In this document: in pieces, positions 3,766-51,801 of the stretch
Position numbering within the stretch: position 1 is the stretch's first letter
Layout of the letters: every line of letters starts with the position of its first letter
Origin: Octopus vulgaris
Taxonomy: Eukaryota
Assembly (NCBI GenBank): GCA_951406725.2
Contig: OX597826.1
Location: forward strand, 9,548,001 to 9,612,000
DNA length: 64,000 bases
Reading direction: 5' to 3'
Program-made: the position numbers and the translations under genes
Notes under the pieces: model-generated
Database searches by the model: none
The model's input: the letters and a program-made list of their open reading frames with translations, nothing else
Told to the model about the DNA's origin: nothing

Positions 3766-4519
3766 GTTTGTCTTTCCCTTTAAGGGATGCAAATAAATTC
3801 TTGTCTTTACGTTAGGGTATTGTCCTATCAATACTTACTTTTTAAAAAATCAAATAATACTGAATAATAACGCAGCTTTTAAAGTTCGAGTATCCATGGT
3901 GATGGTGGGACTCTTATTGTTGTTTGACCCTAGGTCAGCCTTGATTGACTAGTTCTAAGGCCAAATGTATTCCAGCCATGATCTCTCCAACTTTCTGAAG
4001 ATGCCACTATTGTAAAGTAGTTGGCATTTGAAAGGGCATCTAGATGTAAAAACCATGCCAAAACTGACTTCACCTGTGCCTGTGCCATGTAAAAAGCACT
4101 CTATCCACCCTACTGGGTGGCTGATGTTAGGAAGAGCATCCAGCTCCTATCAAACCGTCCCACCCCACTATTTGTTTTTTTGTCTCTGAAGACACCAGAG
4201 TAATTTGTAGGAGATTTGGCTGCTATTTTTATCAAGCTGCACAGCAGCCTAAAAGTCTTTCTTTAGTTTGAGAGTAGTCTTTATAATTCTTGTTGTTATT
4301 TTAGCCCCTAACTCATCTCTGATTAAACAAACATCTGATCAGAAGCATTCAAACCATGACCATCTCAACTTTTTTTCAGATACAGTCTTCCTTGGATTAT
4401 GCTATCTAGTGTGTTTTTTTTTTCATATTCTCTGAGGCTACTGGAAAGAAAAGAGAAAATTGTCCTCAAGCCCAAAAGACCCAGGCTAAATGTCTACTAA
4501 AATCAGATGGTGCTATTAA

Positions 4520-5019: not shown

Positions 5020-5232
5020 CATCATCTTCATCGATTATCATCTGTCTTCCATGCTGACATGGGTTGGATGGACGTTTTGACAGGAGCTGGATGCTCTTCC
5101 TAACATCAGCCACCCAGCAGGGTGGACAGAGTGCTTTTTACATGGCACAAGCACAGGTGAGGTCAGTTTTGGCATGTTTTTTACATCTAGATGCCCTTCC
5201 AAATGCCAACCACTTTACACTGTGGACTGGAG
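5020..5232 (-). mobile_element. Degenerate RTE 3'-end fragment
   Basis: Reverse complement of ...GAAGGGCATC...GTCCAACCCATG...GCATGGAAG...GATGA. Confidence 0.65.
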
Positions 5233-23516: not shown

Positions 23517-24385
23517 TCTTTTATTCTTTTACTTGTTTCAGTCATTTTGACTGTGGCCGTGCTAGAGCACCACCTTAAAGGGTTTTTTAGTTGAAGAAAT
23601 CAACCCCAGGACTTATTCTTTGTTAGCCTTGTACATATTCTATCAGTCTCTTTTGCCAGACCACTATGCTACAGGGACATAAACACACCAACATCAGTTG
23701 TCAAGTGATGGTGGGGAGACAAATACAGACGCTGAGAGACACATATATAAATATATACGTGCATATATATGTGTGTGTGTATATATCATGTAAAAAGCAC
23801 CATCCGATCGTGGCTGTTGCCCGCCCCGACTGGCCCCCATGCCGGTGGCACGTAAAAAGCACCATCCGATCGTGGCCGTTGCCAGCCTCGCCTGGTCCCC
23901 GTGCCGGTGGCACGTAAAAAGCACCACCCGACCGTGTCCGTTGCCAGTGCCGCCCCGACTGGCCTCCGTGCCGGTGGCATGTAAAAGGCACCATCTGATT
24001 GTGGCCGTTGCCAGCCTCACCTGGCCCCTGTGCCGGTGGCACGTAAAAAGCACCATCCGTCCATGGCTGTTTGCTAGCCCCGTCTGGCACCTGTGCGGGT
24101 GGCACGTAAAAAGCACCCACTACACTCACGGAGTGGTTGGCGTTAGGAAGGGCATCCAGCCATAGAAACACTGCCAGATCAGACTGGAGCCTGGTGCAGC
24201 CTTCTGGCTTCCCAGACCCCAGTTGAACCGTCCAACCCATGCTAGCATGGAAAGCGGACGCTAAATGATGATGATGATGATGATGATATACACACACGCA
24301 CACACACGCGATGGGCTTCTTTCACTTGCTATCTACCAAATCCACTCACAAGGCTTTAATCAGCTATAGTAAAACAAACACTTTA
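23517..24385 (-). mobile_element. SINE family A split at its internal microsatellite by an RTE 3' fragment
   Basis: Tail 23517-23740, microsatellite, partial head 24305-24385. Confidence 0.8.
23787..24287 (+). mobile_element. RTE 3'-UTR fragment with six tandem ~62 bp units and (TGA)n tail
   Basis: GTAAAA(A/G)GCACC recurs at 23790, 23852, 23914, 23981, 24043, 24106; distal part matches the LINE 3' end. Confidence 0.9.
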
Positions 24386-24879
24386 TCACTATAAGCAAGT
24401 CTGTGAGTGACCACCACGTGTGAGTGTTTTTGTGTGCATATATCTTTCGACAAGGTGTATCAACCAGGGGATGTTAACATTGGTCAGTAACCAGTGCCCT
24501 CCAAACGAAGTCCTTTGCACTGAATTGTAGCTGCTCTCTTGTCTTTCTATTTCTCTCAGGAACACACTAAACAAGCAAAACAAGTGATTGGCTTATTGGA
24601 AACCTGTAACTAACATTAATATTTTTCACAGATCTGATACCAAATAAATAAAGCATTTGAATAAACAAATAATTGTTAGTTAATAGCATTCAGCCATTGC
24701 TCATCATAACAATTAATTATTGTCTTGATACTGTGACTAATGTTGTTACATCTTTGCTAATTGTTATGTTCTTTTTATCTTGTCTATATTGTTACATCAC
24801 AATATGGCAAATTAGTAGAATTGTTTGAGTGGTGGACGAATTCCTTGAGAAAGTGCTATTCAGTTACAGCTGTTTGTGT

Positions 24880-45933: not shown

Positions 45934-47776
45934 TCATCATCATCATCATCATCATCGTTTAACGTCCGCTTTCCGCGCTAGCACGGGTTGGACGGTTTGA
46001 CCGGGTCTGGGAAGCCAGGGGCCGCTCCAGGCTCCAGTCTGAATCTGGCAGAGTTTCTACGGCTGGATGCCCTTCCTAACGCCAACCACTCCGTGAGTGG
46101 ATTGGGTGCTTTTTACGTGCCACCTGCACAGGGGCCGGAGGGTCCGGCATCGTCACGATCGGATTCGAGCATTTTAACGTGTCAGCGGCACGGGGGCAAC
46201 GAGGTCCGGGGTACTTTGGGGATTGGGGTATTTTGGGGATCCAGGGTACTTTGGGGATCCGGGGTACTTTGGGGATCCGGGGTACTTAGAATGGGTAGGG
46301 GGGTACTTAGAATGGGTAGGGGGTATGTGGAATTGCTGCAGAAAGCAGCCCGGGTCTTTGTAGTCACAGCATATCTCCAGAGATCTCGGTCCTTCGCCAT
46401 TGCCTCAGTGAGGCCCAATGCTCTGAGGTCATGCTTGACCACCTCATCCCATGTCTTCCTGGGTCTACCTCTCCCCCTGATACCTTCAACTGTTTGGGAG
46501 TGGCACTTCTTCACACATCTCTCTTCATCCATCCGCAGCACATGACCATACCATCGCAAGCGTCGCTCTTGCACACCACATCTGATGCTTCTTATATCCA
46601 GCATTTCTCTCAGGATACTTACACTCTGTTTTGCGTGCACACTGACACTACACATCCAGCGGATCATGCTAGCTTCATTTCTTTCAAGTCTACGCATGTC
46701 TTCTGCAGTCACAGCCCATGTTTCATTACCGTGAAGCATGGCAGTTCGCACACATGCATCATATAATCTACCTTTTGCTCTGAGGGAGAGGCCTTTTGTT
46801 GCCAGTAGGGGTAGGAGCTTTCTGAACTTTGCCCAGGCTATTCGTATTCTAGTGGTGATACTCTCTGTGCATCCACCTCCGCTACTAACTTGGTCTCCCA
46901 GGTAGCGGAAACTATCAACTACTTCTAGTTTCTCTCCCTGGAGTGTGATGGAATCTGTTTTCTGAGTGTCTGTTGTGTCTATTGTCCCTGTGCATCTGCC
47001 GCACATGAAAGCTATCTTATCTGTTAATTTCCCTTTAATGTTGCTGCACCTCTTATGTGTCCATAACTTACATTGGGTGCATCTTATGGAGTTTCTACCT
47101 GTACCTTTCCTACAGGTTGAGCAGGGCCACCTACCCGAGGGGATGTGTGTTGAGTACCTCTTGCTGCTTACTAATACTTTGGTCTTTGCTACATTTATTC
47201 TAAGGCCCTTTGATTCCAACCCTTGCTTCCATACCCGAAATTTCTCTTCTAGTTCCGGTAGTGATTCTGCTATGAGAGCTAGGTCATCGGCATAGAGGAG
47301 CTCCCAGGGGCATCCCGTTTTGAATTCCTCTGTTATTGCTTGAAGTACTATGATGAACAAAAGGGGACTGAGGGCTGAGCCCTGGTGCACACCTACTTCT
47401 ACTCGGAATTCTTCACTATATTCGTTGCCAATCCTAACCTTGCTAACAGCCTCTCTGTATAGAGCCTGTACAGCCCTTATTAGCCATTCTTCAATCTCCA
47501 GTTTCCGCATCGACCACCAGATAAGGGAACGGGGAACCCTGTCAAAGGCTTTCTCCAAGTCTACAAAAGCTATGTAGAGGGGTTTATCTTTAGCTAGGTA
47601 CTTCTCCTGCAGTTGTCGGACCAGGAATATAGCATCAGTGGTGCTTCTACCTGGTACAAAACCGAACTGCATTTCATCTAAACAAATTCTCTCCCTAATG
47701 AGATTGGTTATGACCTTCTCTGAGACCTTCATCACCTGGTCCAACAGTTTGATACCTCTGTAGTTATTTCTATCTA
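45934..47776 (-). mobile_element. 5'-truncated RTE LINE, copy 2
   Basis: Intact RT-region ORF, 3' UTR, (TGA)n tail; both ends abut (TA)n. Confidence 0.95.
46182..47744 (-). CDS. RTE reverse transcriptase (N-terminally truncated) with internal PHD finger
   Basis: QFGF, AFVDLEKAFD, GVHQGSALSPLLF, LLYADD, FRYLG motifs; C4HC3 at 46992-47123. The frame is open upstream to the truncation point, so the track start is not a real initiation codon. Confidence 0.93.
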   Translation of the reverse strand: MDQVMKVSEKVITNLIRERICLDEMQFGFVPGRSTTDAIFLVRQLQEKYLAKDKPLYIAFVDLEKAFDRVPRSLIWWSMRKLEIEEWLIRAVQALYREAVSKVRIGNEYSEEFRVEVGVHQGSALSPLLFIIVLQAITEEFKTGCPWELLYADDLALIAESLPELEEKFRVWKQGLESKGLRINVAKTKVLVSSKRYSTHIPSGRWPCSTCRKGTGRNSIRCTQCKLWTHKRCSNIKGKLTDKIAFMCGRCTGTIDTTDTQKTDSITLQGEKLEVVDSFRYLGDQVSSGGGCTESITTRIRIAWAKFRKLLPLLATKGLSLRAKGRLYDACVRTAMLHGNETWAVTAEDMRRLERNEASMIRWMCSVSVHAKQSVSILREMLDIRSIRCGVQERRLRWYGHVLRMDEERCVKKCHSQTVEGIRGRGRPRKTWDEVVKHDLRALGLTEAMAKDRDLWRYAVTTKTRAAFCSNSTYPLPILSTPLPILSTPDPQSTPDPQSTLDPQNTPIPKVPRTSLPPCR

Positions 47777-47786
47777 TATATATATA

Positions 47787-50700
47787 TCATCATCATCATC
47801 ATCATCATCGTTTAGCGTCCGTTTTCCATGCTAGCATGGGTTGGACGGTTCTACTGGGGTCTGTGAAGCCAGAAGGCTTCATCAGGCCCAGTCAAATCTG
47901 GCAGTGTTTCTACGGCTTGATGCCCTTCCTAACGCCAACCACTCCGTGAGTGTAGTGGGTGCTTTTTACGTGCCACCCGCACTGGTGCCAGACAGAGCTG
48001 GCAAACGGCCACGAACGGATGGTGCTTTTTATGTGCCACCGGCACGGAGCCAGGCGAGGCTGGCAACGGACACGAAACGGGGCGGTGCTGGCAACGGTCG
48101 CGAAACGGAAAGTTCTCTTACATGCCACCGGCACTGGTAACACATCTGCAATTTCCATTGATCGATTTCCATTGATCGATTTCGATTCTGATCGTCACTT
48201 GCCTCAACGGGTCTTCACAAGCAGAGTTTTGACATGCCACCGGCACTGGTAGCACATCCGCAATTTCCATTGATCGATTTCGATTCTGATCCTCACTTGC
48301 CTCATCACGTCTTCACAAGTAGAGTTTTGTGTCCCAAGAAGGGAAGGTATGCATACGTAGGCTGGCTCCATCCCATGTAGAAGGCCACAGATTATGGACT
48401 CACTTGTCCTGCCGGGTCTTCTCGCGCACAGCACACTTCCAGAGGTCTCGGTCTCTAGTCATTTCCTCAGTGAGACCTAAAGTTCGAAGGTCGTGCTTCA
48501 CCACCTCGTCCCAGGTTTTCCTGGGTCTGCCTCTTCCACAGGTTCCCTCAACCGCTAGGGTGTGGCACTTTTTCACACAACTATCTTCATCCATTCTCGC
48601 CACATGACCATACCAGCGCAAACGTCTCTCTTGCACACCACAACTGATGCTTCTTAGGTCCAGCTTTTCTCTCAAGGTACTTACACTCTGCCGAGTGTGA
48701 GTACCGGCATTACACATCCATCGGAGCATACTGGCTTCATTTCTAGCGAGCTTACGCATATCCTCAGCAGTCACGGCCCATGTTTCACTGCCATGTAGCA
48801 TGGCTGTTCGTACACACGCATCATACAGTCTGCCTTTCACTCTGTGCGAGAGGCCTTTTGTCACCAGCAGAGGTAAGAGCTCTCTGAACTTTGCCCAAGC
48901 TATTCTTACTCTAGCAGTTACACTTTCAGCACACCCGCCCCCGCTGCTGACCTGGTCACCTAGGTAACGGAAACTATCAACTATTTCTAGTTTTTCTCCC
49001 TGGAAAGTGACGGAAGTTGGTCTCAGAGCATTTTCAGTGTTTATTGTTCCTGAGCATCTGCCACATACAAAAACCATCTTCCTAGTTAGCCTTCCTTTGA
49101 CATTGCTGCATCTCTTATGTGTCCATAGCTTACACTTGGTGCATCTTATAGAGTTTCTACCTACACCTTTTCTACAGATCGAGCAGGGCCATCTACCTGA
49201 AGGTGTTTGTGATTTGTCTACCTTCCTACTGATTACGACTTTGGTTTTAGCTAGATTGACTCTGAGGCCCTTCGATTCTAATCCTTGTTTCCACACCTGA
49301 AACTTCTCCTCCAGTTCTGATAGCGACTCAGCAATTAGAGCAAGGTCATCAGCATAGAGGAGCTCCCAAGGGCATCCTGTCTTGAATTCCTCCGTTATTG
49401 CCTGGAGGACTATGATAAATAGGAGGGGGCTGAGTACTGAGCCTTGGTGGACTCCTACCTCTACCCGGAATTCTTCACTGTACACATTTCCAACCCTCAC
49501 CCTACTAGCAGCATCCCTGTACATGGCCCGCACAGCTCTCACTAACCATTCATCTATCCCTAGTTTCCTCATTGCCCACCAGATAAGGGATCGGGGGACC
49601 CTGTCGAAGGCTTTCTCCATGTCAACAAAAGCCAGGTACAGGGGCTTATCTTTGGCTAGGTATTTCTCCTGCAGCTGCCTTACCAGGAATATAGCATCAG
49701 TAGTACTTTTCCCTGGCACAAACCCAAACTGCATCTCATCTAAACTAACTCTCTCTCTAATTAGTTGGGCTATGACCCTCTCCGTAACCTTCATCACCTG
49801 GTCCAACAGCTTGATACCTCTGTAGTTATTTGTATCTAGGGCATCACCTTTACCTTTGTAGCAGTTGACTATTATACTGCTACACCAGTCATTGGGTATG
49901 ACCCCTTTGTGTATCACCTGATTAACTATACGGGTGACTAGGCTATAGCCGACACTACCAGACATTTTGAGCATCTCTGCAGTGATTCCTGATGGGCCTG
50001 GGGCTTTCCCTGTCTTCATGCTTCTAATTGCCTTAGCTACCACGGAACTATCAACTCGGATAGCTGGTCCCTCTGTTGGGTCAACATTCGGCAGACTCTC
50101 TTTATCCCATTCATTTTCTTCATTCAGCAACCTTTCATAGTGGCATCTCCAAACCTCTCTCTTTGCATCTTCATTTAGCGCAAGTGAACCATCTTCCATG
50201 CGAACACACTTCTCTCCTACCACATCACGATTCTCTCTCACACACTGTCTTGCAACACGAAACACCTCCAGTCTTTGGTCCTCACGGCGCAGAACATTGG
50301 CAAATTTTTTCTTATCTGCTTCCCCTCTGGCTAAATAAACCTGTCTCCTAGCTTCTCTTTTGGCAGTCTGATACAATCCCCTGCTACCCCCATTTTTCCA
50401 GACCTTCCAAGCCTGTCTCTTTTCTCTAATAGCCCTGTCTACAATATTGTTCCACCACCACGTTATTCTAGGTCGAGAGGGGACTTTGCACCAGCCACAG
50501 ATCTGGTCAGTGGCTCTCAGCAGGTTGTCCCTTAGAAACGTCCAGCTGTCTTCTACCCCCTGTGATGCTCTATCCCCTTCTACTTCGTCAGAGGCTTCAA
50601 GTAATATGTCCCTAAATCTCTGTCCATTTGCAGGATCTTTAAGCTTCCAGATCCTTCTTCTCCATATTTGTCGTCTTCTGGTTGTCCTCCTAGTCCTGAT

Positions 50701-51132
50701 CCTAAAGTCACTAACTACCAGTCTATGTTGTGGGGTACATTCTTCACCTGGGAAGGTTTTGGCATTTATAAGCAGCCATCTCTCCCTTTGCCTTGTAAGG
50801 ATGTAGTCAATTTGGCTGGTATGTTGGCCCGATTGGTAAGTGACTAGATGGCTGGTAGGTTTCCTGAAGTTAGTGTTGCAAATCATAAGATTATTTGCAT
50901 CGCAGAACTCCAGCAGCCTGGTTCCCTCCTCGTTGCGGGAGCCATAGCCATAGCCTCCATGTACGCCATGGAAGCCCACAGCATGTCGTCCAACGTGACC
51001 ATTGAAGTCACCAGCCACAAAGATAAGGTCTCTGTCGTTCGTCAACGAGGTAGTCTGCAGTAGAGTGTCATAGAATCGGTCTTTCTGTCCATCGGGTAGC
51101 CCCGACTGAGGAGCATAGGCTGATATAATGGT
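47787..51132 (-). mobile_element. 5'-truncated RTE LINE, copy 1 (3.3 kb)
   Basis: Partial APE endonuclease plus RT in one uninterrupted frame, ~600 bp 3' UTR, (TGA)n tail; both ends in (TA)n. Confidence 0.97.
48400..51132 (-). CDS. RTE APE endonuclease/reverse transcriptase polyprotein (5'-truncated) with internal PHD finger
   Basis: EN motifs [26 protein letters not shown]; RT motifs [35 protein letters not shown]. First ~15 aa of the track ORF are microsatellite. Confidence 0.96.
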
Positions 51133-51319: not shown

Positions 51320-51757
51320 AAAGCACCAGTGGCACGTAAAAGCACCATCCGTTCGTGTCCGTTGCCAGCCTCGCCTGGCCCCCGTGCCGGTGACACGTAA
51401 AAGCACCATCCGTTCGTGGCTGTTTGCCAGCTCTGTCTGGCCCTGTGTCGGTGGCACCTAAAAGCACCATCCGTTCGTGTCCGTTGTCAGCATTGCCTGG
51501 CTCCGTGCCGGTGACACGTAAAAGCACCATCCGTTCGTGGCCGTTTGCCAGCTCTGTCTGGCACCTGTGTAGGTGGCACGTAAAAAACACCCACTACACT
51601 CATGGAGTGGTTGGCGTTAGGAAGGGCATCCAGCCGTAGAAACACTGCCAGATCTGACAGGGCCTCACGAAGCCTTCCAGCTTCACAGACCCCAGTTGAA
51701 CCGTCCAACCCATGCTAGCATGGAAAGCGGATGCTAAATGATGATGAAGATGATGAT
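51320..51757 (+). mobile_element. RTE 3'-UTR fragment (five units), same subfamily as copy 1, opposite orientation
   Basis: Shares diagnostic CATCCGTTCGTGGCCGTTTGCCAGCTCTGTCTGGCAC and GGGCCT...GAAGCCTTC..GCTTCACAGACCCC with 47787-48075. Confidence 0.9.

Positions 51758-51801
<44 letters not shown>

Follow-up and report, generated by a model that had tools for sequence, protein, structure and literature searches.

In the available parts of the sources, the 3′ tails of stringent-type LINEs comprise a terminal stem-loop and a non-poly(A) trinucleotide tail (PMC3747384, PMC4176376), and in plant RTE LINEs the tail is (TTG)n or (TTGATG)n (PMC3747384). Where the papers found describe a LINE 3′ signal, it is a single terminal stem-loop. 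Kojima (2018) described bipartite RTE-derived elements and Ceph-SINEs with a conserved RTE 5′-UTR domain; as far as the accessible text goes, an RTE 5′-UTR block is joined in them to an RTE 3′ tail (PMC5786205). From the viral side, the accessible account of the TMV upstream pseudoknot domain has it stimulating translation and being replaceable by poly(A) (PMC5382211). An octopus RTE element has been reported with a 3′ UTR that, in the part of the source available, is mostly microsatellite and thus appears different from the LINE described below (PMC9115989), and the available part of PMC4758252 contains nothing about the array that is our subject. No description of this array was found in the literature searched, the repeat databases (Repbase, Dfam), subscription papers and figure alignments lying outside the scope of the search.

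The locus lies in a window of 64,000 nucleotides (the whole stretch of Octopus vulgaris DNA that was analysed, from an assembly of 2.8 Gb in 227 contigs) and consists of an array of five 62–67 bp units inside the 3′ UTR of a 5′-truncated LINE copy. Like the tails of stringent-type LINEs, this UTR closes with a terminal stem-loop and a trinucleotide tail; unlike them, it carries a variable array and a 5′-UTR-type block between the ORF and the hairpin. With the bipartite elements and Ceph-SINEs, as available in PMC5786205, it shares the joining of an RTE 5′-UTR block to an RTE 3′ tail, but here the arrangement terminates an autonomous LINE; GGAAGGGCAT has no match in the text and supplement of that paper, figures excluded, and the block is at most a candidate for Kojima's domain. 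As in the TMV domain, predicted small pseudoknots stand in a 3′ UTR before a structured non-poly(A) end; the variable unit number, many broken units and hairpin spacers set the array apart from what is available on that domain, and any function of its own is putative. Two features are new here: a 25-nt core that is older than the 62-bp unit and has arrays of its own, and the 5′-UTR-type block behind the array.

A tandem array at positions 23790–24117 is reported by TRF (period 62, 5.2 copies, 81% matches), which also gives a 129-bp dimer period. Exact cores of the form GTGC-N-GGTG-GCAC-GTAAAAAG-CACC start at 23901, 24030 and 24093 on the plus strand and at 46105 and 47958 on the minus strand, and GCCAG-loop-CTGGY hairpins at 23881, 23943 and 24010. 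The copy, all on the plus strand, begins behind a (TA)/(TG) microsatellite with the 5′ truncation junction and the 3′ half of a cut core (23787–23801); in sister copies the sequence goes on through further units and a pre-array segment to the ORF, whose C-terminus upstream places the array in a LINE 3′ UTR. Unit 1 (23802–23863) has lost part of the 5′ arm of its hairpin (about 23816–23834), and its core (23838–23863) has one A–C mismatch at a CpG site. Unit 2 (23864–23925; hairpin 23881–23896, core 23900–23925) has a short loop and unit 3 (23926–23992; hairpin 23943–23963, core 23967–23992) a long one; they are followed by unit 4 (23993–24054; hairpin 24010–24025, core 24029–24054) and unit 5, the last and best-kept position (24055–24117; core 24092–24117). 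Behind the array come a linker with a small CACTC/GAGTG inverted repeat (24118–24134), the conserved GGAAGGGCATCC block (24135–24176), the terminal stem-loop (24229–24260) and a (TGA)7 tail (24266–24286). The tandem hairpin-plus-core units of about 62 bp, the stem-loop and the non-poly(A) tail are thus present where the sequence-only reading had placed them, and the four letters it cited for the variable base N (C 23905, G 24097, A 10195, T 42516) are correct. Its picture of the array needs correcting for unit 1, with its damaged hairpin and mismatched core; four of the five cores pair fully.

The host element is an active LINE lineage, likely of the RTE clade, a label taken over from the earlier reading. 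Two young families lie on the minus strand of the window: family A (47787–51130), with an EN-RT-PHD ORF, three partial and two complete units and the common 3′ end, and family B (45934–47786), with a piece of an RT-PHD ORF, 18/20-bp repeats and two units, of which one is broken and the other complete, before a 3′ end shared with family A. Both ORFs encode RT and PHD, only the longer also an endonuclease, and both lead into the same 3′ block. Pfam domains RVT_1 and Exo_endo_phos_2 fall on the 924-aa frame, the endonuclease N-terminus is legible in loci L251 and L253, and the homologues, at 45–55% identity, nearly all lack an element name. A PHD-like finger behind the RT domain (residues 664–707 of the frame; window 48400–51130, minus strand) is common to many relatives, and tandem monomers of about 600 bp stand at the family A 5′ end, upstream of the ORF (L251, L253). 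Short-repeat (TGA)n tails replace poly(A) in this lineage. Three insertions are clustered in (TA)n tracts of the window (45934–51130, minus strand; 51329–51760, plus strand), and most tails of these LINEs run into TA or CA microsatellites, flanks that suggest a target preference. Contigs from four runs coded as four organisms contain the 3′ UTR, which has no bearing on expression.

The explanation in which we place moderate confidence is that the array is a slippage-grown, variable part of the 3′ UTR of an active LINE, whose hairpin and last 25-nt core are likely retained as folded RNA and whose additional units are likely dispensable. The array would grow and shrink through copying slips between short direct repeats, arising presumably in reverse transcription (template jumps) or through unequal exchange. 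In a non-random sample of fetched blocks (1,664,000 bases, among them three 100-kb blocks without any copy), the downstream anchor occurs 191 times; 107 of these copies belong to the present type, 37 to an older one and 7 to a third, and 40 are unassigned. An ORF start follows the anchor in none of the 191. The 107 copies of this type, truncated ones included, carry no core in 5 cases, one in 32, two in 22, three in 31, four in 11, five in 4, six in 1 and nine in 1, and 18 have the ORF end upstream. Among the 30 best matches of the window copy, 13 keep the pre-array marker, with 5–10 cores each, and 11 have the ORF C-terminus upstream. Unit number therefore varies as had been claimed, but its range, put at about 2–6, was set too low, since it reaches 9–10. 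Intact arrays of this subfamily often alternate long- and short-loop units.

Other traces in these UTRs fit slippage as well. Unrelated duplications of 14, 18/20 and about 110 bp occur in them, and deletions between TGGC(AC) direct repeats remove S1a and S2a in 6 sampled cores, all in last units; 2 of 30 family A copies show the same type of deletion. In the older family the 25-nt core (GGTGC/GCACC, weak S1) forms tandem arrays by itself, which makes it older than the 62-bp unit; core arrays have formed with periods of both 25 and 62 bp. This family sometimes carries two copies of core, linker and downstream block; at 4016–4144 (plus strand) and 5029–5214 (minus strand) of the window lie older elements in which the downstream block is doubled, the second standing behind a core. 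In the young families, at least 40 genomic copies each share an identical ORF end of 501 bases: 27 of 30 family A copies have two complete cores and the other three have one, and all 30 family B copies have a single complete core, besides a broken unit and the unrelated 18/20-bp repeats. Since successful families have only one or two complete repeats, the array is probably not an RNA device that acts by dose but a side effect of copying slips. Even if nothing but slippage is at work, the array is a clean record of unit gain and loss in a LINE tail.

The retention of RNA structure was examined in 267 cores, from which 11 without the downstream anchor and 12 without a homologous S1a were left out, leaving 244 scored. 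The core has two interleaved complementary stems, as an H-type pseudoknot does, and would fold compactly, with S1 of 4–5 bp, L1 of 1–2 nt, S2 of 4 bp, a variable hinge base and an A-rich L3; a simple hairpin of similar energy is the alternative fold. At the position between S2 and S1, 200 cores have G, 38 A, 33 C and 14 T, which we infer to fit a hinge base with a 4-bp S1 and a 2-nt L1 better than the 1-nt L1 originally proposed. A one-base L1 spanning a 4-bp S2 may be strained. Pairing is better kept in last than in internal units (S2 263/282 versus 377/450; S1 264/282 versus 399/450), and, CpG decay included, both stems are fully pairable in 106 of the 244 cores (49/94 last, 57/150 internal). 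The non-consensus rate is 6.8% in 19 paired non-CpG columns versus 30% in 15 unpaired ones (p = 1e-4, the columns not being independent). L1 and the hairpin loop vary freely while the stems and L3 stay fixed; L3, with a rate of 6.9%, and three spacer columns are as invariant as the stems. The spacer hairpin is better supported than the core: its stem is constant under about ten different loops, and in family B GCCGG/CCGGC replaces GCCAG/CTGGC, a fixed A–U to G–C swap. The contrast between stems and loops and the better-paired last units speak for the slippage explanation. What speaks against it is that internal units also keep their stems far better than their loops and that 7 of their 10 types (one after correction by hand) have an intact knot; drift alone is a poor explanation of this unless those units are recent copies.

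The same conservation also speaks for an additive array, in which each unit would be a functional hairpin plus H-type pseudoknot aiding stability, translation or RT recruitment in the manner of tobamoviruses. We consider this unlikely. In its favour, conservation tracks the predicted knot, L3 included, core arrays exist at both periods, and the pairing pattern is rare by chance: in 3000 dinucleotide shuffles of one unit, a 5+4 bp Watson–Crick H-type pairing appears 9 times and one with an A-rich L3 never, the pattern having been chosen post hoc. Furthermore, a C/G difference between old and young cores at the stem junction is paired in both states, with the G of L3 (25/33) or with the C of S1. 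An A–U outer pair in the older family, considered as a further case, occurs once (p = 0.34) and was dropped. Against the additive array, both stems pair in only 57 of the 150 internal units and no covariation in S1 or S2 is seen over the 244 cores, at low power. Double changes are close to independence (T–A 28 versus 28.2 expected and A–T 11 versus 8.7, both at CpG sites, and 6 versus 3.2 for another T–A pair), and mutual information, which ranks the best predicted pair 64th of 1378 (two S2 pairs unscored), gives the pairing no support. Thus, of the H-type pseudoknot claimed for each unit, the fit to the conservation pattern stands and covariation is missing. This bears on the preferred reading too: no compensatory S1/S2 change directly supports folding, and one unit type, in five elements, is without the last knot, so that even the last core may be unneeded in cis.

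Energies are equally indecisive. By rough estimates the knot (−7.1 kcal/mol) is level with or behind a 6-bp triloop hairpin (−8.6 kcal/mol), which is possible if N is C, and values so close cannot choose between the folds. Folded without pseudoknots, the 504-nt region is no better than shuffles (z = −0.87), which likewise gives the structural part of the slippage explanation no help; the terminal hairpin alone stands out (z = −2.8), and its stem shows an A–U to G–C change between families A and B. An Rfam scan of 23600–24400 returned only microsatellite-driven and chance matches, none relevant at E values up to 5, the tobamovirus upstream pseudoknot domain included. Compact luteovirus-type frameshift pseudoknots and preQ1-I aptamers resemble the core in the size of their stems and loops and in having an A-rich L3; unlike them, the core lies outside any reading frame and is without an Rfam match. 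No known self-cleaving ribozyme was recognised: there is no Rfam model match and, by eye, no hammerhead core; the strand order of HDV-like and pistol layouts does not fit the core. A tobamovirus-like tandem domain implies that several knots are needed, and the young abundant families contradict this with their one or two complete cores. The proposed copy-number-variable structured domain survives as variation and a constrained hairpin, and its additive role runs against the success of those families. If the core is a real functional pseudoknot, it would be an additional cis-acting RNA element in one of the genome's most abundant young repeats, for which the natural 1- to 10-unit variants are a ready dose series.

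An array acting on RT had also been expected to leave a mark on 5′ truncation. The junctions of 120 copies were curated by hand: 54 fall within the array, where a further 4 copies are inverted, and 10 within the linker; 49 copies read through and 3 are chimeric. Truncation inside the array is indeed frequent, yet no more so than its length predicts: per base, the hazard comes to 0.0033 both for the array and for the stretch beyond (for the latter an upper estimate, partners being absent in rare subfamilies) and to 0.0038 for the linker. Within units, 13 junctions lie just 5′ of S1 (7.1 expected) and 11 in L3 (7.1 expected), a departure from uniformity that is not significant (p = 0.075); the L3 excess fits microhomology with (TA)n targets. 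At the 3′ foot of the knot, where a stall would leave them, there are 2 junctions versus 6.9 expected. Truncation points are thus enriched neither in the array nor at that foot, and RT stalling was rejected on the flat hazard. The additive array retains some weight because the power to detect covariation is low, yet two signatures that it predicts are missing. Recognition by RT most likely takes place at the terminal stem-loop, by analogy with stringent LINEs as described in the available part of PMC3747384; the enzyme would be recruited by this stem-loop and the (TGA)n tail, not by the array.

A wholly neutral repeat, with stems derived from internal GTGC/GCAC repeats and conservation inherited from few founder lineages, is improbable in our view. 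Unit clustering gave 17 types, each present in three or more elements and together covering 134 of 256 units. Twelve are intact (11 by script, one after a one-base register correction by hand) and the other five broken or deleted; in no type does the core have a compensatory change outside CpG sites. The spread of broken-stem types agrees with neutrality, and relatedness among units makes the columns non-independent; against it, the 17 types differ mostly where bases are unpaired and the last unit is better kept. The distribution of the unit suits both neutrality and slippage: among the best 79 of more than 578 loci from a metagenome scan, the 18 relatives with a readable 3′ end have a short UTR that lacks an array, and a search of 191,692 bases with the unit profile gave no match. 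The relative L113 has a similar terminal hairpin and TGA tail.

The GGAAGGGCATCC block is conserved more widely than the array. Its profile finds 19 matches in 15 metagenome loci, mostly short non-coding elements, many of which end in tails of neighbouring LINEs; a scan of viral contigs for the block gave no match. Two matches lie directly before an endonuclease N-terminus, in L111 (positions 221–256, E = 1e-4) and L176 (240–281, minus strand, E = 1.3e-5), so that the block, internal here, is homologous to an RTE 5′ UTR, as in bipartite elements. Because two relatives have it in their 5′ UTR, we regard this 3′ end as a likely patchwork; we infer that the lineage took it from a bipartite element (5′ UTR plus tail) of the kind described in the available text of PMC5786205, the block behind the array having come from a 5′ UTR, likely by capture of such an element's 3′ end. 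Family A's own 5′ UTR was rejected as the source of the array: in 20 loci, including many truncated ones, the upstream 1,540 nt, where the 600-bp monomers lie, contain neither unit nor block on the sense strand. For the block one can draw a pseudoknot that encloses a hairpin, its TGCC strand having an ambiguous partner in this genome and, by eye, favouring the upstream partner in L111 and L176, and the block may be the functional RNA proper. Its apparent transfer to the 3′ UTR of an autonomous LINE is a test case for its role. One could go further and regard the whole as a 5′-UTR module moved 3′, with an amplifiable pseudoknot that replaces poly(A) or blocks decay and a unit number that tunes RNA or protein output, in effect an enhancer of translation or stability like those of viruses, but in a retrotransposon; we give this little credence.

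Finally, that the conserved letters are DNA- or protein-binding sites rather than base pairs is very unlikely: the core is conserved without compensation, C>T transitions that keep a wobble pair (42) and G>A transitions that break a pair (46) are equally frequent, and L3 and the three spacer columns are as fixed as the stems, but nearly all fixed columns have a complementary partner, and the hairpin stem survives its many loops and, in family B, a full A–U to G–C swap. On this alternative alone bear TACGTGC, on the minus strand of each core, which we take to resemble a hypoxia response element, and TGGC-N5-GCCA, in the spacer of some units, which we take to resemble an NFI site. Among the curated copies, four (9, 17, 18 and 65) have 5′ inversions that begin in the array, of the sort known as twin priming, and two others (128 and 181) share a foreign 5′ segment some 70 nt long, joined at an identical core position and possibly marking a chimeric short element.
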